Notes: generated by a model not told the origin, from the sequence alone. A DNA stretch of 64,000 nt from an uncultured Planctomycetia bacterium (GCA_964572255.1 CAZNEE010000003.1:25258-89257); one strand, 5' to 3'; numbered from the stretch's first letter, positions 3,447 through 21,083 are shown. Numbers and translations are program-made.

Positions 3447-3541
3447 TGGTTTATTATAATATAGGATATGTAAGAGGTAAAGGATATATAAGAATATAAG
3501 CGACGGGAGATTTGCTTAAGGCGATTATATCTTTTTCCGTT

Positions 3542-4204: not shown

Positions 4205-4236
4205 TATCCACCTGCCTTTTTAAAATGCCCGATAGG

Positions 4237-4995: not shown

Positions 4996-4997
4996 GT

Positions 4998-6733: not shown

Positions 6734-6757
6734 GGCCTCCTTCTTCCCTTACGCTGT

Positions 6758-7642: not shown

Positions 7643-7689
7643 CGGTCCTCTCCTTTGTTATATATTTTAATATAATTATGTTTCTTGCC

Positions 7690-7721
7690 GGTTACAGTTA
7701 TGTGAACTTTATGTGAACTTA
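7690..7721 (-). promoter_or_regulatory. Pho-box-like array upstream of pstS
   Basis: Seen directly: TGTGAAC at 7701-7707 and 7712-7718, with a weaker third copy GTTACAG at 7691-7697, i.e. 7-nt half-sites at 11-bp periodicity. This sits about 45-75 nt upstream of the pstS ATG in the position expected for PhoB operators. Confidence 0.6.
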
Positions 7722-9050
7722 AAATTTTGTCTTAATATCCAGCTGCATAAGCTGGTACGGTTCATCATAGTCATTCGTTAATCCCTTGTTGATGCTTATG
7801 GGCTCCATCCAGTAGTATTCCGCGGAAAGAACCGTATTCTTGAATATCGCATAGTCAATCCCGCAATTTATGCCCTGGCCGCCGGTACCGCCAGCCCGTG
7901 GTCTACCCTGGGGAGTGAATCCATAGAAATCGGAGTCAGGCATAAAATCAGGCACTGCGTCGCGTTCTATATACCTGTATTCCCCCCAGAGCTTCCAATC
8001 TCCCGGCTTTTTCGGCTTTTTAGTGCCGAGATAACATCCAAGCTGCCAGGCAAGTTGATTTTTCGCAGCTTCGGTATTCCAGATAAAATCACCGTAAAGC
8101 CCGTGCCCTAATTCAAAATCAAACAGTTTCTTGCTGTCATAATTAAAGATGAGATCCAGCATGTGGAAGTCATACCTGTAAGTGTTTCCGAGAGCTCCTC
8201 CCCAGAGAGTATTAGTACCTGCCGAATAGTCGTAACCATAACTCTGGTTCCCCTTGATGTTAGCCAACCCGTAATATGCTGTCCCCAGGTTCAATGTCGC
8301 GTCCCAATCCTTTATTATGTCCATTTTCAGGCCGCCCTGCACAACCCACATTAAAGGATCCCTCTGGGAAGTCCCTATCTCGTCCAACCAGAACATTGCG
8401 CCATTGGCATAAAGGTTTGTAGGCACTTCACCGAAATTAAAATTAGGAGACATGTATTGCACAGCTACACCGCCCGGGCAGATATCTCCGTCCCAAAGAA
8501 GTTCTGACTTGACTAACGGATTCCCAAATTTTCCCAGCCAGAGATCACCTGTACCAACTCCTTCGGTAAGTTCCGGCGTCCAATGGATGTAATACTGATC
8601 CAAACGGAAATCGTATGTTTCGAAATCATCGTCCAGTGTCTGGTTGGTAGACCTTGGATCGTTATTTCCGGTTACGGCCAGAATGCCGGCAGACACCTGC
8701 TCGTTGACCTTCCCTTCAACGCCTAACCTGGCTCTTACTCTTTCCCTTATTCTCTCATGCGCAGGGCCCAGTCCTTTACCCCAGTCCGTCTGGGTCCTGA
8801 ACCTCACATCTCCTTTCAACTTTATTTTCTGTGTCCATTCAGGTGCCGTTATTGCCTTGCCTTCCGCCAACTCCTTGGCAGCTTCCTCTTTTGCCTGCGC
8901 CTTCAATATCTGGGCCTCGTATGGAGTAAGAATGCCCTTTTCCACAAGTTTATTAACCAGAATATCCATCTCGCTGGCCCGCGCGCTGCCCGAGCAGAAT
9001 CCAATAATTGAAACCAAAATAAGCATCATGATCGCAATTTTCCTCTTCAT
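7719..9050 (-). CDS. Outer-membrane beta-barrel porin, putative phosphate-selective (OprO/OprP-like)
   Basis: Signal peptide, about 440 aa, an aromatic-rich beta-strand pattern and a C-terminal F. It is located inside the Pho regulon between pstS and phoR. The N-terminus carries one KGILTPxEAQxLKAQ motif. Confidence 0.5.
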   Translation of the reverse strand: MKRKIAIMMLILVSIIGFCSGSARASEMDILVNKLVEKGILTPYEAQILKAQAKEEAAKELAEGKAITAPEWTQKIKLKGDVRFRTQTDWGKGLGPAHERIRERVRARLGVEGKVNEQVSAGILAVTGNNDPRSTNQTLDDDFETYDFRLDQYYIHWTPELTEGVGTGDLWLGKFGNPLVKSELLWDGDICPGGVAVQYMSPNFNFGEVPTNLYANGAMFWLDEIGTSQRDPLMWVVQGGLKMDIIKDWDATLNLGTAYYGLANIKGNQSYGYDYSAGTNTLWGGALGNTYRYDFHMLDLIFNYDSKKLFDFELGHGLYGDFIWNTEAAKNQLAWQLGCYLGTKKPKKPGDWKLWGEYRYIERDAVPDFMPDSDFYGFTPQGRPRAGGTGGQGINCGIDYAIFKNTVLSAEYYWMEPISINKGLTNDYDEPYQLMQLDIKTKF

Positions 9051-9086
9051 TTCTCTCCTTCCTTTTTTTGACGTTTTTCTGTCTTT

Positions 9087-9407
9087 TTATTTTTGCGCAC
9101 AAAGTTCCTTTTTTTTCAACTCTATTTGTGTACAGCTTTTTTCAAAATCCGCATATGTGAACTCGTTGGAACTGTCAATACCGAATATTCCCGGTTGCAG
9201 ATCTGGCCAGTTATCACCCCCTTCCTTTTCTGTGTCATTGCGGAATTTAATCGCGTTTATAAGATCTTCCGATATTTTTTTGCAATACCTAAGGTAGCCT
9301 ACCCCTGTAGCCAGAAATGCCAGTATAACGATTGCCGCGAAAAATCCATACTTTGCGGCGCTATACCACAAATGAAAATCTTCCACCCTGCAGATATTAA
9401 ACATTCC
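9087..9407 (-). CDS. Small membrane protein, hypothetical (Pho-box preceded)
   Basis: The ORF has one predicted TM helix (FFAAIVILAFLATGVGYL). AAGGAGGG precedes an internal MGMFNI start at about 9407. No family was recognised. Confidence 0.4.
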   Translation of the reverse strand, partial: GMFNICRVEDFHLWYSAAKYGFFAAIVILAFLATGVGYLRYCKKISEDLINAIKFRNDTEKEGGDNWPDLQPGIFGIDSSNEFTYADFEKSCTQIELKKKELCAQK

Positions 9408-9480
9408 CATTTTTTCCCTCCTTATATTGATGGTTCTCATCGAATTTCGCTTAAATTGTACATTTTTAATGTGGAGGATT

Positions 9481-9511
9481 TTTTACAAAAAAGTGAACTA
9501 TAAGTGAATTA
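9481..9511 (-). promoter_or_regulatory. Pho-box-like array upstream of small membrane protein gene
   Basis: AGTGAAC at 9492-9498 and AGTGAAT at 9503-9509, plus a weaker TTTTACA at 9481-9487, with 11-bp periodicity. This is the same TTCAC core (minus-strand sense) found upstream of pstS and phoB. Confidence 0.5.
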
Positions 9512-9567
9512 AAATACGGGCATATTTCACCCTGAGGGAAGTGAAAAGCATTAAAAAGATGATGGAA

Positions 9568-11340
9568 TTACGCTTTGGGAAGCGTAAAAGTGAAGGTGGA
9601 ACCCTGGCCAAGTATACTCTCAACGGAAACCTGGCCGCCGTGTTCCTCGACTATATGCTTGATTATCGAGAGGCCGAGCCCTGTCCCGCCGGCCTGACGG
9701 GAACGTGTTTTATCGGCGCAATAGAAACGTTCAAAAATACGGGGCAGGTCCTTTTCAGATATACCTACGCCATTGTCGGATATGCTGACCGTCACAAAAC
9801 CCGCCTGTTCCTTCGCGGTAAGCTTTATGAACCCGCCATTATCCGTGTATTTTATCGCGTTGTCTATCAGGTTATAAAAGACCTGCGCGATCATAGGCTC
9901 ATCGACCATTATATCCGGGATATCTTTATCCATGTTGTTCTCTATGTTTATGGATTTCTCTTTGGCCGCATTTTCCAGATCTTTTATCACTTTATCCGCG
10001 ATCGTACGCAGGGAACAGGATCTGAAATCTAATTTCAATTTTCCCGTTTCTATCTTTGAAAGGTCCAGAAGATCATCTATAAGCCTTACGAGCCTCTCGG
10101 CGTTCGCCTCTATTATCTTCACAAAGTCTTTGGCATGCTCTTTGTCTTCCAAGGCGCCGGCGCCAAGGGTTTCGGCAAAACCTTTTATATTGGAAGCCGG
10201 TGTCCTGAGTTCATGGGAAACATTAGCCACAAAATCTTTGCGGATATTTTCAAGACGCCTTATCTCCGTTATATCATGGAAAACAAGCACAGCTCCCTCT
10301 ACCTTGCCGTCCCGTATTACAGGTGTCCCGTGTATCATCAGTGCTTTCTTCTCCGGCATTAAAATAGATATTTCCCTCGACTCCATGCCGCTTGTCATTT
10401 TTAAAAGCCTGTCCACGGTTTCCTGCACTTCGATATTGCGTATGACCTCAAGAGGTTTCCTGCCGACGGGATCCTTACTTACCATGAACATGTCCTGAAG
10501 GGCTTTGTTCATGAGTAATATAGCGCCTTTTGCGTCAACGACTATCAACCCGTCAAACATGCTCAGAAAGACTGCCTCCAGCCTGGCTTTGTTGCCGGTG
10601 ATCTGGTCTATTTTTGAACGTATTTCTTCGGCCATATAGTTAAAACTAGCGGCAAGATCCCCGATCTCGTCGTTTGTCCTGATGAATATTTTTTTAGCGA
10701 GATTACCCTTGGCTATATCAGCCGCGGCAGTCGATATGTCCTTTATGGGTTTAGAGATAAAGAATGACGCGAAAAAACTTACCAAAACAGATACAAGGAA
10801 CGCTATCAATAAAGCATATAACAGCATCCTCTTGAGCTTGGCTGATACCATGTCCACATCCGATAGCGGCAGGGACATCCTTACGATCCCCTGAGGCTTA
10901 TCTTTTCCGAACACTGCCGCGATATACAGCATGTCCTTCTGAACGGTAGTGCTGAAACGCCTGCTTTTTCCTATACCCGATCTGAAGGCTTCCTGCACTT
11001 CCGGACGGTTGAAATGATTCTCCACAGCCTCAAGTTCAGCTCCGTTTAGGTCCGAATCGCCCAGGACCGTGCCGTCAAGACCTATTATCGTCACCCTTGT
11101 TTCAAGCTTCTCGCCCGCCCTGTCGGCTATATCATCTATTTCTTGTAAACGCGGATATCCGTGGAAATCTTTCTCCAGAAAAAGTTTGGCCAGCAAGACC
11201 TCTTTAGTCAAAGCAGTCTTTATCCTGGAGTAAATGTAATCTTTTAACGTGGTATTGAGGTACGAAAAGACCCCGATCAAAATGACGGCAAGTATCAGAC
11301 AGAAAATAATGGTTATTTTATAATGGATATTTATTCTCAA
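9568..11340 (-). CDS. phoR: Phosphate regulon sensor histidine kinase PhoR
   Basis: N-terminal TM helices, a PAS-like region, H-box HELRTPASNIKGFAETL and a HATPase_c G-box (GGTGLGLSIIKHIVE). It overlaps phoB by 4 nt. Confidence 0.85.
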   Translation of the reverse strand: MRINIHYKITIIFCLILAVILIGVFSYLNTTLKDYIYSRIKTALTKEVLLAKLFLEKDFHGYPRLQEIDDIADRAGEKLETRVTIIGLDGTVLGDSDLNGAELEAVENHFNRPEVQEAFRSGIGKSRRFSTTVQKDMLYIAAVFGKDKPQGIVRMSLPLSDVDMVSAKLKRMLLYALLIAFLVSVLVSFFASFFISKPIKDISTAAADIAKGNLAKKIFIRTNDEIGDLAASFNYMAEEIRSKIDQITGNKARLEAVFLSMFDGLIVVDAKGAILLMNKALQDMFMVSKDPVGRKPLEVIRNIEVQETVDRLLKMTSGMESREISILMPEKKALMIHGTPVIRDGKVEGAVLVFHDITEIRRLENIRKDFVANVSHELRTPASNIKGFAETLGAGALEDKEHAKDFVKIIEANAERLVRLIDDLLDLSKIETGKLKLDFRSCSLRTIADKVIKDLENAAKEKSINIENNMDKDIPDIMVDEPMIAQVFYNLIDNAIKYTDNGGFIKLTAKEQAGFVTVSISDNGVGISEKDLPRIFERFYCADKTRSRQAGGTGLGLSIIKHIVEEHGGQVSVESILGQGSTFTFTLPKA

Positions 11341-12032
11341 GCTTTTTCCTTGTCGCTGAAACGATACCCGACCCCTCTCACCGTTTCTATAAGAGAACCG
11401 GCCTTGCCCAGTTTTTCCCGAAGCCGTTTAATATGCGTGTCTACCGTGCGGGTCGTAACATCGGAGGCTATATCCCATACGTCTTGCAGAAGTTTTTCTC
11501 TCGATTGCACGCGTCCTTTCCTCTGCATAAGGACAACGAGCAGTTTGAACTCCATTGAAGTAAGCTCTATCTCTTTCTTATCGACAGTTACTTTATGCCG
11601 CGGCATATCAATCATGAGTTTTCCGGCCGCAAGCTTGTCTTTCTCGGGCTCCTCCGGCTTTTGCCTTCTCAATATCGCTTTTATGCGTAAGATAAGCTCC
11701 CGCGGACTGAAAGGTTTAACTATATAATCATCCGCTCCGAGTTCAAAGCCGACAATTCTATCCACTTCTTCCCCTTTAGCGGTAAGCATAATAATGAGCA
11801 TATCGGAAAGCGTCTTATTCTGCTTGATCTGTCTGGCCACCTCAAGACCGTCTATCCCGGGGAGCATTATATCAAGTATGACAAGATCAAAAGAATCTTT
11901 ATCCAGGATTTTCAATGCTTCTTCCCCGTTGAAACATGCCGTACAATGAAACCTTTCTTTTTCCAGATTATATTTGATCAATTTAGATATATTCTTGTCA
12001 TCCTCAACGATCAGCACTCTTTCTTTGGCCAT
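11337..12032 (-). CDS. phoB: Phosphate regulon response regulator PhoB (OmpR family)
   Basis: REC domain (ERVLIVEDD ... D in VILDIMLPGIDG) plus an OmpR-type winged helix (TRTVDTHIKRLREKL). Confidence 0.88.
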   Translation of the reverse strand: MAKERVLIVEDDKNISKLIKYNLEKERFHCTACFNGEEALKILDKDSFDLVILDIMLPGIDGLEVARQIKQNKTLSDMLIIMLTAKGEEVDRIVGFELGADDYIVKPFSPRELILRIKAILRRQKPEEPEKDKLAAGKLMIDMPRHKVTVDKKEIELTSMEFKLLVVLMQRKGRVQSREKLLQDVWDIASDVTTRTVDTHIKRLREKLGKAGSLIETVRGVGYRFSDKEKA

Positions 12033-12082
12033 TGTCCACTTCCTCCCGTTTATTTTATTTTACAACTAAATCTTACATTTTT

Positions 12083-12127
12083 TAAGTGAATTCGTCGTGA
12101 AAATATCGTGACTTTTTTGTGAAACCT
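12083..12127 (-). promoter_or_regulatory. Pho-box array (4 half-sites) upstream of phoBR
   Basis: AGTGAAT 12085, CGTGAAA 12097, CGTGACT 12108 and TGTGAAA 12119, spaced 12/11/11 bp, lying 50-95 nt upstream of the phoB ATG. This is consistent with PhoB autoregulation. Confidence 0.6.
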
Positions 12128-12265
12128 ATGCGACGGTTAAAATGCCCCAGGGCTGGAGACACCGGTAAAAACCCGCGTCGTTAACGGGGGCTTTAGCTTT
12201 TAAATGGCGGAGGTGCCGTAAAATGGGCACCATTTGGGCGCACGGATCAACCTCACTTGTCAGGG

Positions 12266-12736
12266 TTAAAGCCACATCCCTACAAACTTTTCAGCTATCT
12301 CTGCGAACTTTCTATTATTTATAAAATATACTCTATAAAAACTTATTCCATATTTGTCAGCAATTCCCCTAAAAACTCTGTTACTGTCTTCTTCCGTATA
12401 AGGTGGTGGGAGTCTTTGTCCTATCACGGCTAATAGTTGCCTGTCCCAGTCTGTGAGCTCATACGCGTTGGCCCTGTTTATGATGTTCTCAAGTTCACCA
12501 GGTGCAAGTCCATATTTTTGAGATACTTTTATATCTATCTCTTTATACCCTTCGTCCAGCAATCTAAAATACTCTTCATCGTCCTCCATAGTGTCGTCGA
12601 TATCCAAGGCTTCTGTTTCCTTGGTCCATTCGTGATATATCATCAACTCTCTATCTGTAAATGCTTTTGCCTGCGCAAAAGAATTATTTGTGAACATAAG
12701 AACAGATATTGCCAGTAAACTTATTATTTTATTCAT
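12266..12736 (-). CDS. Secreted hypothetical protein
   Basis: Signal peptide MNKIISLLAISVLMFTNNSFAQA and an acidic 156-aa body, preceded by an RBS AAGTGAGGTTGA. No family was recognised. Confidence 0.5.
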   Translation of the reverse strand: MNKIISLLAISVLMFTNNSFAQAKAFTDRELMIYHEWTKETEALDIDDTMEDDEEYFRLLDEGYKEIDIKVSQKYGLAPGELENIINRANAYELTDWDRQLLAVIGQRLPPPYTEEDSNRVFRGIADKYGISFYRVYFINNRKFAEIAEKFVGMWL

Positions 12737-12784
12737 TCAACCTCACTTGTTGGTTTTTAATAACTTGGAATTGGACAAAAAAAA

Positions 12785-12801
12785 TGGTGGAGGTGCCGGG
12801 A
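12785..12801. repeat. 17-bp direct repeat identical to tmRNA 3' end (candidate attR of ssrA-integrated islet)
   Basis: TGGTGGAGGTGCCGGGA at 12785-12801 is identical to 20237-20253, the reverse complement of the tmRNA T-arm/acceptor/CCA end. The orientation is that expected for an element integrated at the 3' end of ssrA. Confidence 0.55.
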
Positions 12802-12832
12802 CTATCGGATTTCGTGCTCAAATCGCCCTTTT

Positions 12833-12855
12833 CACCACGATTCCACCACGATTTG
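12833..12855. repeat. Tandem 11-bp direct repeat CACCACGATT x2 (copy A)
   Basis: TTCACCACGATTCCACCACGATTT. A near-identical tandem pair recurs at 20073-20096. Both lie just inside the islet's direct repeats. Confidence 0.6.
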
Positions 12856-12868
12856 TTCACTAATTTTG

Positions 12869-13351
12869 CTATTTTATCCTTGTCTTTGGTGGAATCTTGC
12901 CTTTTTTGAAATGCTTTTCCACCCAGCCGTTCTTAACACCGGTCCGGCTATCAAAATAGCCGATATAGGGCTTGATATCCAAAAGAGGCGTTCCGTCAAG
13001 GATGTCCACTTCAGAGAAAATGATTTCGGAACCTTTTACCTTTTTGAGTTTCACTATTGAGAACCCGATATGATTAGGACGATGCGGGCTTCTTATGGCG
13101 AATATCCCATGCACCACATCCTCAAGGAACGGTTTTCCAGAGAGCTTTTCTTCTTTCGATCGGTTAAAATAATATATCAGTATGACATGGGAAAACCTTT
13201 CGATATCCTTTAACCCCGCCTTATATTCCGGAAATATCCTGGCAGTACCGGTAACTCCCTTTTTAAACTTACCCTGAATAGGCATGCCCTTCGGTTCTTT
13301 ATACGGCGTATTGATGACACCTATGGGCTTGATCGTAATAGGTTTCTTCAT
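12869..13351 (-). CDS. TsaA/YaeB-like SAM-dependent tRNA methyltransferase family protein
   Basis: RSPHRPNHIGFSIVKL and GTPLLDIKPY match the TsaA (UPF0066) signature region, and the length fits at about 160 aa. Confidence 0.6.
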   Translation of the reverse strand: MKKPITIKPIGVINTPYKEPKGMPIQGKFKKGVTGTARIFPEYKAGLKDIERFSHVILIYYFNRSKEEKLSGKPFLEDVVHGIFAIRSPHRPNHIGFSIVKLKKVKGSEIIFSEVDILDGTPLLDIKPYIGYFDSRTGVKNGWVEKHFKKGKIPPKTRIK

Positions 13352-13368
13352 TTAAAACACTCATCTTC

Positions 13369-13701
13369 CTATTTATGCCGATATTTTATTACCCTGACCT
13401 TTTCAAGGGTGATCAGTCCTTCCAGCACAGTTTCATCCAAAAAAGGCAAGAGCTTGTTTAAATTCTCTTCGGTATCCACAAGCTCAATAACTATGGGAAG
13501 GTCCTCGGAAAGTCTGAGAATCTTGGCCGAATGCATACGGCTATCCGCGCCAAAACCCATCAGGCCCCTCAAAACTGTGGCTCCGGCCAAGTGAAGTTCT
13601 CTGGCTTTCAAAACGATCTGCTCATATAACGGCTTGCCCTCGTATTTATCAGATTCCCCTATGAATATCCTCAGCAATGTTCCTTCTTCAGGCAATTTCA
13701 T
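13369..13701 (-). CDS. DUF190 (PII-like) protein, CrcB-associated
   Basis: GATVLRGLMGFGADSRMH matches the DUF190 motif. The gene sits immediately downstream of crcB, as is common in fluoride-riboswitch regulons. Confidence 0.65.
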   Translation of the reverse strand: MKLPEEGTLLRIFIGESDKYEGKPLYEQIVLKARELHLAGATVLRGLMGFGADSRMHSAKILRLSEDLPIVIELVDTEENLNKLLPFLDETVLEGLITLEKVRVIKYRHK

Positions 13702-13715
13702 GATCAGTCCCTCCT

Positions 13716-14102
13716 TTAACGCGCTATGTTAAACAAAAAACGGCTTAAAAAATAACCGGCAAATACAAGCGCTATGCCAAGTATAAAGCTCGATACTATG
13801 TTCGCGAAGAAAAGGCTGTATTCACCGTCCCGGATCAAATGAAAGCTTTCAAGCGAAAACGTTGAGAATGTTGTGAAAGAACCGAGAATTCCGATAAAAA
13901 TCAAAATTCGCGTATTCTGGGAAACAATTACGGATTCAAACATTCCCCATAGAAAACCTATGAGAAACGACCCTGTCAGGTTGACACTCAATGTCCCCCA
14001 CGGAAAACTACTACCTCCGATCCTGTGTGCTAACCCTGAAGCCCAATACCGTAACAAAGCTCCCGAGGCACCCCCTACAGCAATATAAAAAAACCTCGAC
14101 AT
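13716..14102 (-). CDS. crcB: Fluoride ion channel CrcB/Fluc
   Basis: The 128-aa four-TM protein carries GTLSVNLTGSFLIGF and GILGSFTTFSTFS (Fluc signatures). Confidence 0.88.
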   Translation of the reverse strand: MSRFFYIAVGGASGALLRYWASGLAHRIGGSSFPWGTLSVNLTGSFLIGFLWGMFESVIVSQNTRILIFIGILGSFTTFSTFSLESFHLIRDGEYSLFFANIVSSFILGIALVFAGYFLSRFLFNIAR

Positions 14103-14126
14103 AAACAGATACCTCCTTTCGTTTAA

Positions 14127-14174
14127 GTAGGAGTTATCAGCCGGTTGAGGCGGTTAACGGCGAACCCCATCGCC
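14127..14174 (-). ncRNA. Fluoride riboswitch (crcB motif)
   Basis: Minus-strand sequence GGCGATGGGGTTCGCCGTTAACCGCCTCAACCGGCTGATAACTCCTAC matches the conserved crcB-motif core (GGCGAUGG..UUCGCC..AACCGCC..CUGAUxACUCCUAC) immediately 5' of crcB. Confidence 0.85.
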
Positions 14175-14181
14175 AATTCAA

Positions 14182-14502
14182 TCAAAACGTCACTACCTTC
14201 TCGGATTCTTTAACAATATCGTACATATCTTTCATTGTAGATATGGGACACAGATCAGAACCTTCCTGCTCTCTTGATTTGATACAGCTCCCACAGGCAT
14301 AGATCTTCCCGCCTGCCTGAATAAGCTTTTCCGCCTGCTCAATTGTGTTAAATTTATCCATACTGATCTGCTGATACTCAACGCCCTTGCCCATGAAAAA
14401 TACTTTTACATCATCTTTTTGTGCCAGAGCAAAGTTGGCGTACCTTAAAGCGTTCCAACAGGTTTCCGCGTCATTGCTCGCGATAACAATTCCTATTTTC
14501 AT
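14182..14502 (-). CDS. DsrE/DsrF-like (YchN-like) family protein
   Basis: The 106-aa ORF begins MKIGIVIASNDAETCWNALRYANFAL and contains a YACGSC cysteine motif, the pattern of DsrE-fold proteins. Confidence 0.5.
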   Translation of the reverse strand: MKIGIVIASNDAETCWNALRYANFALAQKDDVKVFFMGKGVEYQQISMDKFNTIEQAEKLIQAGGKIYACGSCIKSREQEGSDLCPISTMKDMYDIVKESEKVVTF

Positions 14503-14528
14503 GATAGCGTCTCCTTTAAGAGCCTGTT

Positions 14529-15050
14529 TTACAACTTAACAAGTAGGCCTAACATTATACCACCGATTACGGTGAAGATAGGGTTAATCCTGAAGACCGC
14601 TGTTAACACAATAACGATAACAGCGATAAGAGCGGCCCTTACGTCCGTAATTGAAGTTTTAAATAATTTTAAAATAGCTACCGTAATGAATCCTATAGCC
14701 ATGGGCCGCGCAACCCTCATTATCCTCTGGATCACGGCATATTCCTTGAACTTATCGTAGTGGATCGAAATTATATAAAGACAAAGAAAGGGTATCGCTA
14801 CAAGCCCTACTGTCGCGCATATAGCTCCCTTCAGTCCGGCTACCCTCGAACCGACGAACGTAGCAAGGTTTATCATGATAGGTCCGGGGGTGACCTCAGC
14901 TACCGATACGACATCCGTAAACTCTTCCATTGTCAGCCACCGGTAGTTTTCGACTATATATCGTTGGGCAAGAACCAGCATCGAGTACCCGCTGCCAACG
15001 GTAAAAAGGCCTACTTTTACGAATGTAATGAACAACTTAAGCAGGATCAT
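14529..15050 (-). CDS. chrA: Chromate transporter ChrA (short single-domain form)
   Basis: FVKVGLFTVGSGYSMLVLAQ ... EVTPGPIMINLATFVG matches the CHR-family motif region, and the 173 aa length fits a half-size ChrA. Confidence 0.7.
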   Translation of the reverse strand: MILLKLFITFVKVGLFTVGSGYSMLVLAQRYIVENYRWLTMEEFTDVVSVAEVTPGPIMINLATFVGSRVAGLKGAICATVGLVAIPFLCLYIISIHYDKFKEYAVIQRIMRVARPMAIGFITVAILKLFKTSITDVRAALIAVIVIVLTAVFRINPIFTVIGGIMLGLLVKL

Positions 15051-18000
15051 GCCCGTACTCCATGAAAAACCGTATAAACGCTCGGGATCACAAACAAAGT
15101 CAGGAACATTGAAACGGCCAGGCCTCCGACTACGGTTATCGCCAAAGGTCTAAGCATCTCAAGACCCTCCCCCCATCCCACGGCCAGAGGAAGAAGTCCG
15201 ATTATCGTGGTCAAACTTGTCATCAGGATAGGCCGGACTCTCAGTGACGCCCCTTCGATAACCGCTTCTTTTACGGAAAGCCGCCCTTCCTTCCTGAGAT
15301 TGTTAATATACTCTACAAGCACGATGGCGTTATTGACGACGATCCCGACCAAAAGGATAAGACCCAGGAAAACCGTGGCGCCAAAAGGAGTTCCTGTAAC
15401 GGCCAGGAATAAAAGCGACCCCATGACAGCTAAAGGGAGGGTGACCATTATGATAAGCGGATCTATTAAAGATTCATATTGCACCGCCATTACAACGAAC
15501 ACGAGGAATATCGCGATCAGTATTACCATCAAGAGCTGTAAGTTTGATTCTTTTGCCGCTTCCTCTTCTCCCCCGTACTCCAGAAAATATCCGTCAGGCA
15601 ACGATATATCTTTAAGCCGGTCTCTGACCGCATCGGTTACCTTGCCCACATTCATCCCGACGGCATCTCCCGTTACCTCAATAAGACGCACCTGGTCTTC
15701 TCTGTTTATCTCGACCGGGCCTTCAGATATCTTCACGCGCGCTACCTCTTTGAGCTTTACGGGAACTCCGCTTGGAGGATAGAGCGGGGTGTCTTCTATC
15801 GCTTCTTTCGTGCTTATAACAAAAGGATCCGCCATAACTCTGATATCATAATCGACATTCCGTTCTGTATCCGTAAACTGCGTATTCACAAGGCCATCCA
15901 CGGAAGCCCGCATAACATCAGTAACGTCTTTCGCGCTAAGACTGAAATCATTCAATCTTTCCCTGTCAAGGAATATGTGTATCTCCGGCCTCGAGAAATC
16001 TATCGAAATATCCAGGTTCCCCAACCCATGCACACCTGATATCCGCGACCTTATATCTTTAGCGAGGCCAAAAAGCCTGTCTAGATTGTGTCCTCGTATA
16101 CGTATGTCCACATCTGAAGTGGATGTTTTTTTAATTCCCCTTAAGGGGGTTTTCATGACTTTTATCCGGGCTCCCTTTACAGGATCGTCTTTTATCGATC
16201 TCTGGAGTTTTCTGATAAAATTATCGGTTGAGACAGGCCGTGCGGATTTTTTAACAAGCTCTATCGTTATGTCAGCTTCATTGGCCTTTTCGTATACATT
16301 CTTTCTCTGCCAATACCCTCCTACCATGGAATACACTTTCGCGACACCGGGCATACCATTGATCCTGTTTTCGAGTTCTTTTACGACCATATCGGTCTTT
16401 TCAACGGCCGAACCGACAGGAAGCTTCACCTTTACCGTGACCCTTCCGTCGTCTATCTGCGGCAGGAATTCCCGCCCGAGCTTTCCCGCCAGTATTATGC
16501 TGATCACAAACAATGCCGCTACAAGGCCACCTATGGCTACTCTATGCCCAAGAGCCCGGGTAAGGATCTTTCTGTATATAACTATGCTCTTGTCAATGAG
16601 CTTTTTAGTAAGATCGTTCTCAACGGAAGATCGTTTGAATTTAAACCAGTGCGCGGACAGGCAGGGCACAACAGTAAGGCTCACTATAAGTGAAATAACG
16701 AACGCCACCGAGATGGTCACGACCATATCCCTGAAAAGTAGTGACGCTATCCCCGAAATAAAAAAGAACGGTATTATCGCCGCCAGGTTCGTCAGAGTGG
16801 ACGCTGTTAACGCGCTGGTGACCTCTCCGCTGCCTATATGCGCGGCTTCTTCCATACAGGAAGCGTCTTTCTGATGCCGTGTTATGTTTTCAAGCATCAC
16901 TATGGAGTTATCGAGAAGCATGCCTACCGCGAGAACGAGCCCGCCGAGCGAGAATATGTTCAGCGTGACATCCGCCAGCCCCATCAGGATAAAAGTTCCC
17001 AGGATACTTACCGGCACGGCTATAGCTATTATGACAGTCCTCTTTAAATTATGAAGAAAAAACCAGATCATCAGCATGGCCAGAAACCCGCCTATTATGG
17101 CCGTAATACCCACATTTTTTATCGAGTTCTCTATGTAAACCGCCTGGCTTGACGCGACATCGCTTCTTACGTCTTCCGGTATTATCTTCTTTACGATAAG
17201 TTCCCTCGTGCGCTTGTTGATGTTTGATACTATCTCGACCGTATTAGCGTTGGGCTGTTTCAGGAAACTCAGCATAACACAGGGCTTTCCATTGAAACGG
17301 GTTAAGATCCTTTGCTCTTCATAGGCGTCGGCGACCCGGGCCACGTCTTTTATCTTTAAGAAACGTCCCTCACGATTAGCAATTATAATGTTCTCTATTT
17401 CAGCCACATCCTTGAACTTGGCAAGTATCCGAACACTGTATTCCTTTTCAGTATCCGTTATCCTTCCGGCGGGAAACTCCGTATTCTCCTGGCTTAAAAT
17501 ATCAAGTATCCTGCCGGTTGAAAGCTCGTACGACTCGACTTTCTGCCTGTCGAAAAGGATCTGTATCTCCCTGACCCTGCCGCCCGAAGTTACAACAGCT
17601 CCGAGTCCCGGTATGCCCAGATAATAATTGCTAAGATCGTTCTCAGCCCAGTCGCGAAGCTCCCTTTCGCCCTTTGTCCCAGAGGAAAGGGCGATTTCTA
17701 TTATGGGAAGCTGGGAAGGGTCCGCCTTGTATATTTTAGGTTCATCGGCGTCAGGAGGAAGATCGTTCCTCACAAGATCAAGCTTGGCCCGGGTATCGGC
17801 GAGCGCCGCATCCATGTCTTTCCCGTACTCGAAATAGACTTCTATCGAGGCGTTCCCTTCTATCGCGGAAGATATAACCTGTATGGCGTCTTCGGTCGTG
17901 GCTACGCTGGACTCCACCCTCTTTAGAATATTTTCCTCGATCTCTTCGGGGCTTGCGCCTTTCCAATCGATAACAATACGGACCAGTGGATAGGTTATCC

Positions 18001-18115
18001 TGGGAAGGAGGTCAACTGAAAGGCTTTGCAGAAAAAAAAGCCCAAGGACTACCACCATCAAGGTAAGCACAAAAACACCAACGGGCCTTTTTATGGAAAT
18101 ATCACTTAACGTCAT
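15047..18115 (-). CDS. RND family efflux transporter (AcrB/HAE-like)
   Basis: The 1022-aa ORF has a 12-TM topology with two large periplasmic loops, and contains MLLDNSIVMLENI and AITVVGGLAVSMFLTLFVIP, which are characteristic of RND pumps. Confidence 0.85.
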   Translation of the reverse strand: MTLSDISIKRPVGVFVLTLMVVVLGLFFLQSLSVDLLPRITYPLVRIVIDWKGASPEEIEENILKRVESSVATTEDAIQVISSAIEGNASIEVYFEYGKDMDAALADTRAKLDLVRNDLPPDADEPKIYKADPSQLPIIEIALSSGTKGERELRDWAENDLSNYYLGIPGLGAVVTSGGRVREIQILFDRQKVESYELSTGRILDILSQENTEFPAGRITDTEKEYSVRILAKFKDVAEIENIIIANREGRFLKIKDVARVADAYEEQRILTRFNGKPCVMLSFLKQPNANTVEIVSNINKRTRELIVKKIIPEDVRSDVASSQAVYIENSIKNVGITAIIGGFLAMLMIWFFLHNLKRTVIIAIAVPVSILGTFILMGLADVTLNIFSLGGLVLAVGMLLDNSIVMLENITRHQKDASCMEEAAHIGSGEVTSALTASTLTNLAAIIPFFFISGIASLLFRDMVVTISVAFVISLIVSLTVVPCLSAHWFKFKRSSVENDLTKKLIDKSIVIYRKILTRALGHRVAIGGLVAALFVISIILAGKLGREFLPQIDDGRVTVKVKLPVGSAVEKTDMVVKELENRINGMPGVAKVYSMVGGYWQRKNVYEKANEADITIELVKKSARPVSTDNFIRKLQRSIKDDPVKGARIKVMKTPLRGIKKTSTSDVDIRIRGHNLDRLFGLAKDIRSRISGVHGLGNLDISIDFSRPEIHIFLDRERLNDFSLSAKDVTDVMRASVDGLVNTQFTDTERNVDYDIRVMADPFVISTKEAIEDTPLYPPSGVPVKLKEVARVKISEGPVEINREDQVRLIEVTGDAVGMNVGKVTDAVRDRLKDISLPDGYFLEYGGEEEAAKESNLQLLMVILIAIFLVFVVMAVQYESLIDPLIIMVTLPLAVMGSLLFLAVTGTPFGATVFLGLILLVGIVVNNAIVLVEYINNLRKEGRLSVKEAVIEGASLRVRPILMTSLTTIIGLLPLAVGWGEGLEMLRPLAITVVGGLAVSMFLTLFVIPSVYTVFHGVRA

Positions 18116-19400
18116 ACCCTCTTCCTGATATTTTCTCTATCTCCGCCTTTGCGAGGCGCATCTCCAGAATAGACAACGCGTACCTGACCTGTGCGAGTGA
18201 AAACGCTTTTTGAGCGTCAAGAAGGTCAAGACTGGTAACAAGCGTATCCCTGTAACGCGCTTCGAATATGTTCAGGCTCTCACGAGCCTTCTCAAGGCTT
18301 TTACGTGCTATCTCGAAGCTTTTCCGTGCCGCCTCGCCCTTAAGGCGTGCCGCCTCTAGATCCAGATCAAGCTGTTGTTCCACAAGTTTCTCATACGAAT
18401 CAAGTTCTTCTTTGTAGGCCTTAGCCTCTCTTACCTCGGCCATGGTCTTACCCCAGTCCCATACATTGAGATCTACAGCTATCCCGGCCGCCCAGTCATT
18501 ATCCCCTCCGGGTAATCTTGCCCATTCGTATCCATACCTGTAATACGAGTTGACCTGGGGGAAAAACCCGCTTCTCGCGGATATTATCATCTCTTCGGCC
18601 GCTTTTTTATCCATGGATATTCTGCGAATCTCCGGATTTTCATACAAATTTACAGTCCCGCGATCATCAAGTACCGGCTCGTCTTTGATATCTTTTATCT
18701 CTATCTCGGCGTTAAGATCGAGACCCATCGCGTTGAGAAGGGTCTTTCTTGATATACCTAAACTCTCCCTCGCCGAGATTAATTCCTGTTCTACCTCGTT
18801 TACCTGGACCTCAAGCCGCAAAAGGGTCTCCTGTCTGGGGACTTTTGTCCGCCTGTTAAGATCGACAGCCGTGTCATATGACGACCTTGTGTATTCAAGA
18901 AGCTCTTCCTTGCTCAGCACTATATCCCGGGCGAAAAGCATCTTGTAATACGCCTCTTTCACGTTAAAGATAACATCTTCCCTGGCGGCAAGGTATCCCT
19001 GTTCCGCGGCGTCAACAGCGTATCTCGCCGACTTCTGTTCAGAAAATATCTTCCCTCCGGTAAACAGGGGCTGGGTAACCTCCATGTACGCCTGGAAATC
19101 GTCTTTTGAATCACCGAGATAACGTTTTTTCCCGGGAATTACATAAGACAATCTGTCATAACTGAAAGTAGCGTCGACCCGTGGAAGATTATCGGAAGTG
19201 ACAGCGCGCAGGTTCTCTTTTTTCTGGTCGGTCTTGTGGTCGTAAATCCCCAGCTTTGGATGCTTTTTAAGCGCTTCCGATATACACTCTTCCAGGGATA
19301 ACGTGTCCTGTTCAACGTAATTTTCCTGCGAATGCGAAATACCCGCGGCAAACAGGGCAAAACCGATCATTAAAAGACATATACTTGCTTTCTTATTCAT
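18102..19400 (-). CDS. Outer membrane efflux protein (TolC-like OMF)
   Basis: It has a signal peptide (start likely MNKKASICLLMIGFALFAAG at about 19400) and the repeated coiled-coil/beta pattern of the OEP family. It is adjacent to the RND pump. Confidence 0.7.
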   Translation of the reverse strand: MNKKASICLLMIGFALFAAGISHSQENYVEQDTLSLEECISEALKKHPKLGIYDHKTDQKKENLRAVTSDNLPRVDATFSYDRLSYVIPGKKRYLGDSKDDFQAYMEVTQPLFTGGKIFSEQKSARYAVDAAEQGYLAAREDVIFNVKEAYYKMLFARDIVLSKEELLEYTRSSYDTAVDLNRRTKVPRQETLLRLEVQVNEVEQELISARESLGISRKTLLNAMGLDLNAEIEIKDIKDEPVLDDRGTVNLYENPEIRRISMDKKAAEEMIISARSGFFPQVNSYYRYGYEWARLPGGDNDWAAGIAVDLNVWDWGKTMAEVREAKAYKEELDSYEKLVEQQLDLDLEAARLKGEAARKSFEIARKSLEKARESLNIFEARYRDTLVTSLDLLDAQKAFSLAQVRYALSILEMRLAKAEIEKISGRGYDVK

Positions 19401-19788
19401 GTTTGGCATGTTTATCATAAAACCTGAGAAACCTCCCAAGGGAATCACGGTTGGCTTTTATAACCCTCACCCAGTCCCGCAAAAACCTTTTCCCCGACGG
19501 AGTTATCTCATATATCCTTTTGGCCGCACCTTTCTGTCCGGTATCCCACTTTGACCTTACAAGACCTTCTTTTTCGAAGGCCCTGAGCGCCCGGTATACC
19601 GCTCCCGCGTCCGGGTCCCTTTTCAGGAAACCTTTTTTCTTTAAATCGTCCATCAGTTCATATCCATGTGACGGGCGGCATAGTAATAACGCCAGAAGAC
19701 AAGGCTGTATAAAACGGCGGGTTCTGCCCGAAGTGGCTCCGGAGACAGCTTTCAGGGTAAAGCGTGATACCTTTTCCTTCATGAACAT
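19393..19788 (-). CDS. PadR family transcriptional regulator
   Basis: LLALLLCRPSHGYELMDDLKK ... GAVYRALRAFEKEGLV is the PadR winged-helix signature. Confidence 0.8.
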   Translation of the reverse strand: MFMKEKVSRFTLKAVSGATSGRTRRFIQPCLLALLLCRPSHGYELMDDLKKKGFLKRDPDAGAVYRALRAFEKEGLVRSKWDTGQKGAAKRIYEITPSGKRFLRDWVRVIKANRDSLGRFLRFYDKHAKHE

Positions 19789-20072
19789 CTCCTCAATAAG
19801 TTCTGCATATATATGTTTTTAACATATATATTGAGAAAAGTCAACCATGTTCACTTTAATACTTGCTTACCCGGTATAAAGTTGTTTTTTCTGACATACA
19901 ATCACCCTCTTCTTTTTTCTTTAGTAACTGCCCATCATTATCTCAGACCTTATTTATTACGGATAGAAAGAATTAAATACCTTTGACCAAATTGTGACTA
20001 TAGAGAAGTGAATTTGAGTTGATAGGACAATAGCGATAGGAATTAACATCATGTTGTTCGTTTATAATAAAT

Positions 20073-20096
20073 TCCACCACGATTTCACCACGATTT
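20073..20096. repeat. Tandem 11-bp direct repeat CACCACGATTT x2 (copy B)
   Basis: TCCACCACGATTTCACCACGATTTT, in the same orientation as the copy at 12833-12855. It lies 140 bp inside the tmRNA-proximal repeat. Confidence 0.6.
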
Positions 20097-20189
20097 TTCT
20101 TAAAAATGACCATTTTACCACTGACTATAACTGACGGTGTCTGTACATATATTCTTATCTATGTGCCTGTGATTTAAGGCATTTACAGC

Positions 20190-20225
20190 AAAAAAGGCGA
20201 CTCTATATTCAGAATCGCCTTTATG
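20190..20225 (-). terminator. Rho-independent terminator 3' of tmRNA
   Basis: Minus-strand sense GCATAAAGGCGATTCTGAATATAGAGTCGCCTTTTTTGCTG: a GGCGA...TCGCC stem followed by T6. Confidence 0.65.
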
Positions 20226-20236
20226 CTAAAACAAGG

Positions 20237-20623
20237 TGGTGGAGGTGCCGGGATTCGAACCCGGGTCCATGAACTCGAACCTGACAGTATCTACATGCTT
20301 AGTCTACCTTTGATCTTTTTCCCGAAATGTCCGATAGGCGGGAAATTCCGGGAAGCAATCCCCTGATACTACCTGAGGTTAGGAGATATTACCCCAGGAG
20401 TCCTTGCGTAGCTTAAGTCCTATTAGTATCCCAAGGCACTTACTAATGGACCGGTTCCTGCAAATTGAGGAACACTTAACGCATCCTCAGCCAAAATAGC
20501 TTCGGCTTCGGCTACTGGATTGTATCCTGCGTTTATGTTTTTGCCAGGTTTTTAAAGAGGCCGCCTGACAACCTCTGCATGCTGCTCCCAAGTTAAAAGA
20601 ACATGTCGAGACCTTTCACCCCC
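20237..20623 (-). ncRNA. ssrA: tmRNA (ssrA)
   Basis: The reverse complement ends GGACCCGGGTTCGAATCCCGGCACCTCCACCA (T-arm, acceptor, CCA) and begins GGGGGTGAAAGGTCTCGAC. A 7-bp acceptor stem pairs the 5' GGGGGUG with the 3' CACCUCC. It sits immediately 3' of smpB. The tag reading frame was not resolved. Confidence 0.85.
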
Positions 20624-20624
20624 A

Positions 20625-21083
20625 TTATCTCTTGCGCTTGCGGTGGAGTTCTCGTTCTGTCTCTTTCTTGACTTGTTTTTCTTTTAGAGCCATTCTCTTA
20701 TCAAAGAGCTTTTTGCCTCTTGCTATGCCGACTTCCACTTTAGCGTATCCGCGCTTGAAATATATCTTTAAAGGAACTAACGTGAACCCTTTTTGGGACA
20801 GATTGGTTTCGATCTGTCTTATCTGCATCTTGTGCAAAAGAAGTTTTCTCGGCCTTAAAGGATCATACTCGTCACGTGAAAACTTATAAGGGCTTATGTG
20901 TAAATTATAAAGGAATAACTCGCCCGCTTCAATTCTCGCGAAACTTCCTTTTAAATTGGCTTTCCCGGCGCGTAATGATTTTACCTCAGAACCTATAAGC
21001 TTCAGCCCCGCCTCATAAGTCTTTTCAATATGATAATCCCTGAAAGCCTGGCGGTTTGTTACAACAACCCGTTCTTCTTGCAT
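20625..21083 (-). CDS. smpB: SsrA-binding protein SmpB
   Basis: FRDYHIEKTYEAGLKLIGSEVKSLR ... LLLHKMQI match SmpB family motifs, and the basic C-terminal tail is present. Confidence 0.9.
   Translation of the reverse strand: MQEERVVVTNRQAFRDYHIEKTYEAGLKLIGSEVKSLRAGKANLKGSFARIEAGELFLYNLHISPYKFSRDEYDPLRPRKLLLHKMQIRQIETNLSQKGFTLVPLKIYFKRGYAKVEVGIARGKKLFDKRMALKEKQVKKETERELHRKRKR

Follow-up and report, generated by a model that had tools for sequence, protein, structure and literature searches.

An integrase-less islet bounded by copies of the tmRNA gene 3′ end is polymorphic in an uncultured Omnitrophota population

Integrase-less, att-flanked islets at ssrA are already known from other phyla. 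Cis-mobilizable elements (CIMEs) were defined for the ICESt1-related islands of Streptococcus thermophilus (reviewed in PMC5704250); they occupy the 3′ end of a conserved gene, flanked by attL and attR and in tandem with other elements at that site, have lost their integration and transfer genes, and are thought to derive from integrase-bearing elements by deletion. Some ssrA-specific genomic islands of Dehalococcoides also have no integration module and have been proposed to be CIMEs (PMC3146451), and tmRNA is the most enriched target of Islander-type islands (PMC4383910). The islet described here resembles CIMEs in retaining attL and attR, in lacking genes for integration, excision and transfer, and in lying in tandem with another unit. 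It occupies the tmRNA locus of an uncultured Omnitrophota bacterium, in a 64-kb stretch of DNA called the window below. Omnitrophota are uncultured, tiny and probably host-dependent bacteria; to our knowledge, little is known about their gene exchange.

The islet (12802-20236, ~7.4 kb) lies downstream of ssrA, with smpB, tRNA-Leu and ydjC upstream of the array. Its boundary features are:

20237-20623, minus strand: ssrA (tmRNA gene), the integration target (ARAGORN; Rfam RF00023, 150.4 bits, model positions 1-374 of 374)
20237-20253, minus strand: ssrA-proximal att core, formed by the last 17 bp of ssrA and reading TCCCGGCACCTCCACCA on the minus strand (motif count; relatives' repeats)
20066-20236, minus strand: ssrA-proximal arm, conserved non-coding, ~170 bp (alignment A1, terminator scan, motif count)
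19881-20065, minus strand: spacer found only in the window-type islet (blastn breakpoints)
12802-12873, minus strand: distal arm, conserved non-coding, 72 bp (alignment A2, motif count)
12785-12801, minus strand: distal att core, a displaced 17-bp copy of the ssrA 3′ end (motif count)

The first-pass annotation had noticed a 17-mer that occurs only twice, in one orientation, and a motif count across the 64 kb agrees: TGGTGGAGGTGCCGGGA has exactly two copies, at 12785-12801 and 20237-20253, both on the plus strand, even when up to two mismatches are permitted (chance expectation, 0.01). Because the tmRNA lies on the minus strand at 20237-20623, the 17-mer is the reverse complement of the tmRNA 3′ end, TCCCGGCACCTCCACCA, which by direct reading runs from the final base of the T-loop through the 3′ T-stem, 3′ acceptor strand and discriminator base to CCA. 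The repeat measures exactly 17 bp, since the neighbouring bases on either side differ. An intact tmRNA gene, encoding the tag peptide VPQFAGTGPLVSALGY, thus marks one end of the islet, and the other end is marked by a displaced fragment of its 3′ terminus that has the same orientation. Repeats of the identical 17-mer also occur downstream of ssrA in five relatives, including L003, L016 and L017.

Same-species metagenome contigs provide the empty site (L041/L084, L085, L089, L091 and L092). In these, both flanks are 99.8-100% identical to the window, smpB-ssrA is followed directly by the 156-aa gene at 12266-12736, and the islet is missing to the base; the stretches that align with the left and the right flank of the window have exactly 17 bp in common, so that the distal core and the ssrA core are represented by a single 17-mer, the arrangement expected of an empty attB in a close relative. 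The first-pass annotation had proposed looking for this adjacency and had named the lack of an empty site as an outcome that would refute its reading; the result is in its favour. Together with integrase-bearing elements that use the same 17-bp core in relatives, the empty sites also support its proposal that the duplicated ssrA 3′ end is the signature of an integrated island. The occupied allele is likewise represented by independent assemblies drawn from JGI, ENA and Logan, three of which span the left junction, up to 1.4 kb into the islet, and five the right junction. The islet is therefore polymorphic, present or absent, within one natural population.

The arms had escaped the first-pass annotation, as had the CACCACGATT repeat pairs that they contain (12833/12844 and 20075/20086), these four copies being the only ones in the window. 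From the core inwards, the ssrA-proximal arm consists of the ssrA intrinsic terminator (20193-20222), which is thus supplied by the islet, a conserved block CACAGGCACATAGATAAGAATATATGTACAG..TCAGTTAT.GTCAG..TAAAATGG, and a pair of AATCGTGGTG repeats with 11-bp spacing (20086-20095 and 20075-20084). The distal arm carries AATCGTGGTG repeats at 12844-12853 and 12833-12842, followed by ..GATTTGAGCACGAAA..GATAG adjoining the core. Both arms match the family consensus in alignments of 15 ssrA-proximal ends from different loci (A1) and 13 distal ends (A2); in both, conservation extends from the core to the repeats and ends past them. Between species the arms are 70-84% identical; the corresponding figures are 81-83% for ssrA, in all but one of the six relatives examined, and 66-70% for smpB DNA. 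The same arms flank unrelated cargo in ~20 related Omnitrophota loci, often as tandem arrays downstream of ssrA.

The genes between the 17-mer copies are as follows:

19393-19788, minus strand: padR-family regulator, first gene of the cargo operon (Pfam PadR, E=1.5e-16)
18102-19448, minus strand: outer-membrane efflux protein, OEP (Pfam OEP, E=5.8e-57)
15047-18115, minus strand: RND inner-membrane transporter, AcrB family (Pfam ACR_tran, E=1.3e-248)
14529-15050, minus strand: chromate-transporter family gene, half-size (Pfam Chromate_transp, E=1.4e-45)
14182-14502, minus strand: DsrE-family protein (Pfam DsrE, E=5.2e-13)
14121-14183, minus strand: fluoride riboswitch upstream of crcB (Rfam RF01734, 59.4 bits)
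13716-14102, minus strand: crcB fluoride channel (Pfam CRCB, E=5.1e-29)
13369-13701, minus strand: DUF190 protein (Pfam DUF190, E=3.4e-40)
12869-13351, minus strand: TrmO_N-domain protein, last cargo gene (Pfam TrmO_N, E=2.4e-38)

Pfam confirmed every gene call of the first-pass annotation in this block, in the order padR-OMF-RND-chrA-dsrE-riboswitch-crcB-DUF190-trmO-like, with all genes on the minus strand and the chrA start overlapping the RND stop. That these genes share one orientation may mean no more than that the entire window has a strong strand bias. The cargo had been described as a coherent toxic-ion and efflux set, which holds only in part: the ORF list of the islet contains no adaptor (MFP) gene for the RND pump, chrA is a single half-size gene, and dsrE and the trmO-like gene, which occur as a pair in other Omnitrophota, are widely conserved genes of this group and not resistance genes. 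In another species (L096), dsrE-crcB-DUF190-trmO is followed directly by phoB-phoR-pst, with neither core nor arms, so that some of the cargo genes may have adjoined the Pho cluster for a long time and may not have arrived recently. The suggested comparison of GC content and codon usage was uninformative, since islet and flanks hardly differ.

No Phage_integrase or other recombinase domain was detected by Pfam in the islet ORFs or in window ORFs 16-44128, and neither an integrase-like ORF nor a tblastn match was found anywhere in the 64-kb window. The absence of an integrase is thus borne out, by Pfam on all eight islet ORFs and by ORF and tblastn searches of the window. There is also no Xis-like small ORF in 19780-20240, no relaxase domain in the islet, and no integrase-bearing element adjoining it in the window. 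Among the ~20 related arm-sharing Omnitrophota loci none has a full integrase; an autonomous element with AATCGTGGTG arms was found neither there nor in IMG/VR, and no excised circle (attP junction) was observed. Integrase-bearing elements on the same 17-bp core do occur in five relatives (L006, L014, L077, L098 and L100). Their recombinases are tyrosine integrases, and they share the geometry of the islet, the core being followed after ~90 nt by a pair of direct repeats with 11-bp spacing and then by int; the sequence of the repeats varies by subgroup and differs from that of the islet. Related ssrA elements carry int, a D5-like primase, HTH_17 and a small terminase, the tyrosine recombinase being combined with a replication module in L098 and L100/P0051. 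Remnants of integrases are found at the left end in several related islets (L016, L007, L072 and L101/L103), and full-length relatives exist (P0247, 363 aa, Phage_integrase).

A sibling islet occurs in a different array (L101 type) and is ~99% identical to the islet of the window and identical in its interior. In L101/L103, a Phage_integrase fragment covering profile positions 64-170 of 172 lies 94 bp upstream of padR, and the contigs begin inside it. This fragment, together with the integrase-bearing elements on the same core, supports the earlier suggestion of a decayed or mobilisable islet. The two types diverge at their ends. By blastn, breakpoints fall at reverse-complement positions 44121/44138 (window 19880/19863), and the interval corresponding to the spacer holds other sequence in sibling copies L101/L103 and L102, namely the integrase fragment or ACR3-LMWPc; a mismatch map places a further sharp mosaic breakpoint at ~13061, in the TrmO_N gene. 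Left and right occupied junctions carry window-type variants that differ by 3.5-12% from the L101 type. Because the flanks of the empty and occupied alleles differ by no more than 0.1% while the window-type and L101-type ends differ to this extent, the integrase-less state appears to be older than the presence/absence polymorphism.

Eight related loci contain arrays of 17-mer-bounded, integrase-less islets with diverse cargo. The window itself has two units, one with a perfect and one with a degenerate core, and L003 and L017 have 3-5. The second unit of the window comprises:

12222-12784, minus strand: older, fixed one-gene cassette (present in both empty and occupied alleles)
12205-12221, minus strand: degenerate third core, TTACGGCACCTCCGCCA, with 3 mismatches (alignments with L017 and L003; terminator scan)

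The cassette gene (12266-12736) encodes a secreted-looking protein of 156 aa with no Pfam match, and GTGCCCAAA-type arm repeats are at 12222-12243. In L017, the third core and the next ~45 nt align with the 3′ end of the genuine ssrA and its flank, in L003 they align with post-core sequence at L003:3270, and an ancestral ssrA terminator follows the core (12172-12188, terminator scan).

On balance, 12802-20236 is probably a CIME-type, non-autonomous integrative islet that was recently gained or lost site-specifically through an integrase acting in trans. Its arms would then correspond to P and P′ of an attP site, with the AATCGTGGTG repeats, whose 11-bp spacing is one helical turn, as putative arm-type binding sites of a tyrosine integrase. 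Strand exchange must fall within the 17-bp identity (3′ strand of the T-stem to CCA), because the islet differs from ssrA immediately 5′ of it. Descent from an integrase-bearing element is suggested by the fragment upstream of padR in the sibling and by the remnants at related left ends. An integrase encoded by another element, or by some other part of the genome, may have driven the recent gain or loss; none able to act on these arms was found in the 64-kb window. Newer islets would enter beside ssrA and displace older ones outward, the 156-aa cassette with its eroded core being the displaced unit here, and cargo modules are also exchanged between arrays of co-occurring genomes by homologous recombination.

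A possible but unlikelier account is that the islet integrated with its own integrase and is now an immobile fossil, the alleles being an older polymorphism spread by homologous recombination in the flanks, with no present site-specific recombination. The integrase fragments in the sibling and related islets fit such a history, as does the failure to find a trans-acting integrase in the window, the ~20 loci or IMG/VR; the 156-aa cassette demonstrates that cores erode and islets become fixed, L096 has a fixed version of part of the cargo adjoining the Pho cluster, and the mosaic breakpoints are evidence of ongoing homologous recombination in these islets. A fossil would not, however, be expected to have two perfect cores and two arms that fit the family consensus, nor arms conserved across species at the level of ssrA itself. 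The flanks of the alleles, at 99.9-100% identity, also lack the linked divergence expected around an old indel, and the integrase-less left end seems older than the polymorphism, given its divergence from the sibling ends.

Accidental deletion between the 17-bp direct repeats, by slippage or short-homology recombination, would leave exactly one repeat, as seen, without any integrase. We consider this quite improbable as the origin of the empty allele: it leaves unexplained where the displaced ssrA fragment and the conserved arms came from, and why the same core-plus-arm structure surrounds different cargo in many genomes, and the empty allele occurs in at least five samples. Moreover, 17 bp is short for efficient RecA-dependent deletion across 7.4 kb. 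More improbable still is an assembly artefact in which an islet from another community genome was joined to this ssrA via the common 17-mer and arms. Assemblies do tend to break within the islet or at ssrA, and since the interior is identical to the copy in the L101 array, metagenome co-assembly could have contributed to the interior sequence of the window; yet the independent JGI, ENA and Logan assemblies give left and right junctions that both carry window-type variants.

Beyond being decayed islands, the AATCGTGGTG-armed islets might even form a dedicated integrase-less cassette system, in which an integrase encoded elsewhere inserts, excises and stacks small units with full attP-type arms and moves them from one co-occurring species to another. 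We regard this wider proposal as rather doubtful; if it were true, the shared truncation points of the integrase remnant in L016, L101 and L103 would mean that the non-autonomous form itself is spreading. The tmRNA gene of Omnitrophota is a busy and precisely used landing site. Small att-flanked units bring ion-homeostasis and resistance genes there (for fluoride, chromate, efflux and arsenic, and for transporters of Mg, K and Na), as well as genes of defence type, and one such unit is both polymorphic in a natural population and present at ~99% identity in another array. With the arm and core sequences, accessory genes can be mapped by a simple search of Omnitrophota metagenomes; these sequences also point to two families of tyrosine integrase whose attB is short and well defined.

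Integron cassette arrays also consist of small, recombinase-less cargo units each bounded by a recombination site, but at this locus there is no IntI gene with adjacent attI at the head of the array and no recombinase in the window, and in place of attI or evident attC sites the units are bounded by ssrA 3′-end copies that carry long, asymmetric arms with direct repeats. As in Islander-type tDNA islands (PMC4383910), island sequence restores the target gene, and the far end is recognisable by a displaced 3′ fragment; the Islander definition, however, requires an integrase gene inside the island. The tycheposons of Prochlorococcus (10.1101/2020.12.28.424599) are similar in using tRNA and tmRNA sites, in their partial tRNA repeats, in the tandem or degenerated copies that build islands and in their niche-adaptive cargo (nutrient and ion genes), and PICI-like relatives exist; unlike the islet, a tycheposon by definition has a tyrosine recombinase of its own and usually also a replication module. 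The ssrA-specific islands of Dehalococcoides (PMC3146451) likewise carry niche-adaptive cargo and lie in tandem downstream of ssrA with short direct repeats of its 3′ end, as found here. They have a serine recombinase DsiB module beside attL, genes absent from this locus, whereas the Omnitrophota integrases are tyrosine recombinases, the identity block starts at the T-loop/T-stem boundary and arm repeats are present. From CIMEs (PMC5704250), finally, the islet differs in having no adjacent integrase-bearing partner in the window and no known conjugation context, in its target, the tmRNA gene of uncultured Omnitrophota, and in belonging to a family of many small, often one-gene members with strongly conserved arms.

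There are exactly two copies of the 17-mer TGGTGGAGGTGCCGGGA (hereafter the core) in the window (12785-12801 and 20237-20253), and allowing up to two mismatches adds none (chance expectation 0.01). That one of only two copies is the 3′ end of ssrA, as the first-pass annotation had it, was confirmed by the window count, ARAGORN and Rfam. The genes lie as follows:

20237-20623, minus strand: tmRNA gene ssrA (ARAGORN and Rfam, 150.4 bits, model positions 1-374 of 374)
20625-21083: smpB, just upstream of ssrA

On the RNA strand the core reads TCCCGGCACCTCCACCA. As read off GGACCCGGGTTCGAATCCCGGCACCTCCACCA, it runs from the last base of the T loop through the 3′ strands of the T-stem and acceptor stem to the discriminator base and CCA. 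The flanking bases differ between the two copies, which limits the repeat to exactly 17 bp.

The islet between the cores (12802-20236) carries eight genes, all in the orientation of ssrA, and Pfam and Rfam upheld every call in the gene block proposed from sequence alone. Pfam found a recombinase domain in none of the eight, and an integrase was absent elsewhere in the window by Pfam on ORFs in 16-44128, a catalytic-motif screen and tblastn with three integrase families; the islet thus lacks an integrase, as had been suggested. The suggested comparison of composition with the flanks gave a difference too weak to count for or against an islet: GC is 45.7% vs 43.7% in the rest, tetranucleotide distance falls within the top 4.4% of same-size windows, and GC3 is that of the Pho genes. 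An exact look-up of the islet PadR protein returned no record. The efflux operon (14529-19448) pairs an outer-membrane factor with an RND pump, their ends overlapping, and has no membrane-fusion (adaptor) gene. chrA stands alone as a half-size gene (173 aa), its start overlapping the stop of the RND gene; short genes for chromate transporters are usually found as pairs.

The source is an Omnitrophota bacterium; the best SmpB matches in one-genome-per-species data are Omnitrophota MAGs (57-74% identical). Same-species contigs were retrieved by exact-protein look-ups. In the alignment to L041/L084, identity was 99.9% in the ssrA flank and 100% in the far flank, and the two alignments overlap by just the 17-mer, so that smpB-ssrA runs straight into the 156-aa gene (12266-12736, minus strand) and phoB; the 7,435-bp islet and one core are missing to the base. 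The attB junction of this empty allele is ..GGGTTCGAATCCCGGCACCTCCACCATTTTTTTTGTCC, and it is identical in contigs from other samples (L085, L089, L091, L092). The search for an empty site in relatives, proposed earlier, therefore succeeded, with ssrA followed by the 156-aa gene and a single core in all of these contigs. Other contigs carry the occupied left junction (L037, L038, L042) or the occupied right junction (L086-L088, L090, L093). These alleles support site-specific gain or loss of the islet within one population. Empty-site strains would be without the islet copy of the TrmO_N protein.

Just within each islet end lie two copies, 11 bp apart, of CACCACGATT (AATCGTGGTG on the ssrA strand), at 12833/12844 and 20075/20086, the only four copies in the window. 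Fifteen islets at different loci, aligned at their ssrA-proximal ends, have a conserved non-coding arm of ~170 bp, in the order core, terminator hairpin, conserved block and two or three AATCGTGGTG repeats; similarity ends right after the repeats, where each islet's own cargo starts. The hairpin is located thus:

20193-20222: terminator hairpin in the proximal arm, with compensatory changes among aligned ends

Likewise, 13 distal ends share a 72-bp arm consisting of two repeats, ..GATTTGAGCACGAAA..GATAG and the core, upstream of which no similarity was found among them. Arm identity between species is 70-84%, compared with 81-83% for ssrA (five of six relatives compared) and 66-70% for smpB DNA; the arms are thus conserved at about the level of ssrA, above smpB DNA. 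We infer from this layout that they would be the two arms of an attP site as left by integration, a reconstructed attP being the 72-bp arm, core and 170-bp arm with the predicted junction ..GATTTGAGCACGAAATCCGATAGTCCCGGCACCTCCACCACCTTGTTTTAGCATAAAGGCG. In the empty allele T8 directly follows ssrA without a hairpin (20237-20253 vs 12785-12776), and in the occupied allele the islet arm provides ssrA with a strong terminator (13-bp stem); insertion therefore alters the ssrA transcription end.

Gene order upstream of ssrA is constant among relatives (…ydjC, tRNA-Leu, smpB, ssrA) and varies downstream, where extra core copies occur: three in L003, four in L017 and one each in L009, L012 and L016. 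Those in L003 bound NhaP-EIIA, an FAD protein and CorA+MscS. Scanning metagenomes for the arm repeats brought in ~17 further loci with a core at the expected distance. Cargo across islets includes TrkH, CorA, MscS, ArsP, an ArsS-like radical SAM protein with a methyltransferase domain, MerR with a type I restriction system, Fic, AAA_14/DUF4143 ATPases and nucleotidyltransferase/HEPN. A full-length integrase was absent from every one of these core-bounded islets. An ORF of 390 aa that lies on the reverse strand between the core and the arm of L054/L101 was rejected as a candidate; it is an IS481-family DDE transposase, that is, an IS insertion. AATCGTGGTG pairs in high-GC non-Omnitrophota contigs (L044-L046, L051, L055-L062, L067-L070, L074, L076) were set aside as unrelated, with no tRNA, core or integrase nearby. 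Some unrelated, higher-GC metagenome contigs (L044, L057, L061; L058; L076) contain long tandem arrays of 11-bp arm-repeat-like units (CATTCGTGGTG / AATCGTGGTG), again with tRNA, core and integrase absent nearby. Gene-less mini-islets of 150-200 bp also lie between successive cores (L017 11103-11506 and 17638-17837, the latter a duplicate; L009 11284-11432; L003 3287-3480); they have in common a GTGTAG(R)CCCGGGG motif 40-60 nt ahead of the core and may be end remnants of another element family.

Tyrosine integrases of 342-344 aa (PF13102+PF00589) occur just downstream of ssrA in L006, L014, L005 and L077, the last a complete 8.7-kb element bounded by two perfect cores. The family, with 1,389 matches at E<=1e-10, is mostly from Omnitrophota. 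In the four elements just named, GTGCCCAAA repeats with 11-bp spacing lie at ~+90 relative to the proximal core; distally, one GTGCCCAAA lies at ~-149 before the L077 core, and a pair lies there in the integrase-less islets L003, L012 and L049. Other subgroups (L098, L100) have different 11-bp-spaced repeats, and one such subgroup is PICI-like (D5-type primase, HTH_17, small terminase). Because the layout is the same across subgroups, the geometry of core, arm and paired repeats is a property of ssrA integrases in the phylum. The PF13102+PF00589 ssrA integrases (L006, L014, L077 and others) were rejected as the cognate enzyme, since their own arms have GTGCCCAAA or other repeats, not AATCGTGGTG. 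The shared geometry supports AATCGTGGTG as putative arm-type sites of a further integrase; no integrase matching these arms was found in the window or among the islet loci searched. Members of the same family with GTGCCCA-type 11-bp-spaced repeats sit beside tRNA-Ser genes (L080 7082-7260, L083 7792-7975), so that at least two kinds of tDNA are targeted.

An exact look-up of the islet DsrE found the same gene block within another array (L101, contig ERZ27256796:k141_1391240; L103; L102). L101/L103 run padR…trmO, distal arm, core, IS481 insertion, nucleotidyltransferase/HEPN islet, another core and corA. In L102, which shares its sample with an empty-site contig, the padR-RND block is preceded at 120-1627 by DsbD, an arsenite carrier of the ACR3 type (SBF_like) and an LMW phosphatase (LMWPc, ArsC-like), which suggests a larger form of the islet, for resistance to metals and metalloids. 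Homology to the window sets in 75-92 bp before padR. Of 7,079 positions, 65 differ between window and L101: 33 are in padR and the 5′ part of the OMF gene, a 2.85-kb stretch of the interior has none, and the last 237 bp (trmO 3′ end and arm; 12% divergence) contain 28. Such clustering implies either that modules were swapped between arrays by homologous recombination or that the interior is a co-assembled consensus, a caveat on the islet interior sequence.

The 390 nt before padR in L101/L103 code for part of a tyrosine-recombinase catalytic domain, its C-terminal two-thirds (Pfam positions 64-170 of 172), and both contigs begin within this fragment. It recurs after ssrA in L016 (11042-11425), with a short remnant in L072, and L007 has a different integrase C-terminal remnant just past an AATCGTGGTG arm. 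These sequences support descent of the islets from what were probably integrase-bearing elements. The remnant sets in at nearly one codon (..AINIRAETTK) in L016 as well as in L101 and L103 (1-390), two independently assembled contigs that start there; this suggests either descent from one truncated ancestor or a breakpoint that recurs in assembly or recombination. A word-indexed search with the L016 remnant returned fragments only; the notion of a fossil family was dropped when an exhaustive search gave full-length relatives of 360-370 aa (P0247, 363 aa). A phage origin of the islet was rejected: in IMG/VR, arm sequences matched only once, by chance, within coding sequence (L036), and protein-level scans using the P0247 integrase family gave no match.

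Older layers lie beyond the distal core:

12222-12243: GTGCCCAAA-type repeats, before the degenerate core
12205-12221: degenerate core TTACGGCACCTCCGCCA, just past the 156-aa gene, three mismatches to the core
12172-12188: terminator, after the degenerate core

The three together line up with the true 3′ end of ssrA and its flank in L017, which makes the 156-aa gene an older cassette, now fixed; it is present in both empty and occupied alleles. In L001 murI-fumA directly follows ssrA, whereas in the window it lies beyond the Pho cluster, so that 3447-20236 is entirely variable relative to the L001 species. The complete Pho cluster (phoU-pstBACS, Porin_5 porin, phoR, phoB; 3542-12032), in which phoB is preceded by TCAC repeats with 11-bp spacing, sits between the ssrA array and murI and, given L001, may itself have been cargo of an old island; the phoU-murI interval showed no remnant of a core. 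In another species (L096) dsrE-tauE-crcB-DUF190-trmO runs directly into phoB-phoR-porin-pstSCAB-phoU without core or arms; either att remnants were deleted or some of the cargo has long stood next to the Pho genes. The trmO-like protein (12869-13351) is 74-83% identical over ~120 protein clusters, mostly Omnitrophota where the source names an organism, and is more conserved than SmpB; elsewhere trmO adjoins dsrE in a conserved DnaJ-methyltransferase-DsrE-TrmO neighbourhood (L094, L096, L097). At 35840-63977 the window also holds three consecutive giant minus-strand ORFs (2,762, 3,737 and 2,699 aa); the 2,762-aa ORF, the only one scanned, carries an embedded pair of phosphoglucomutase domains (I and II, residues 1428-1693).

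On balance we lean towards a non-autonomous att-flanked islet, recently moved by an integrase that, supplied in trans, would act by site-specific recombination at the cores. Its cores and arms are intact, and the flanks of the two alleles are virtually identical, which favours recent movement in trans. The 3.5-12% divergence between the integrase-less left end and that of its sibling means that integrase loss seems to predate the presence/absence polymorphism. The main rival, possible though doubtful, sees the islet as a relic that no longer moves, with homologous recombination shuffling its two alleles. Loss by deletion across the 17-bp repeats would yield the empty allele but leaves the arms and the islet family unexplained, and seems improbable; an assembly chimera is contradicted by independent junction contigs with window-type variants and is very unlikely indeed.

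A full-text literature search on Omnitrophota together with tmRNA or integrase, and one recent preprint about gene transfer in the phylum, yielded no account of such elements. An integron-like reading of the islet family is possible though doubtful. A CIME is defined by retention of attL and attR with loss of integration genes (PMC5704250), and the islet, with both att sites kept and those genes gone, fits this definition. It falls short of the Islander definition (PMC4383910) solely through its absent integrase. Parallels are found in the tycheposon islands of Prochlorococcus (10.1101/2020.12.28.424599) and in the tandem ssrA islands of Dehalococcoides (PMC3146451), although the latter use a serine recombinase.
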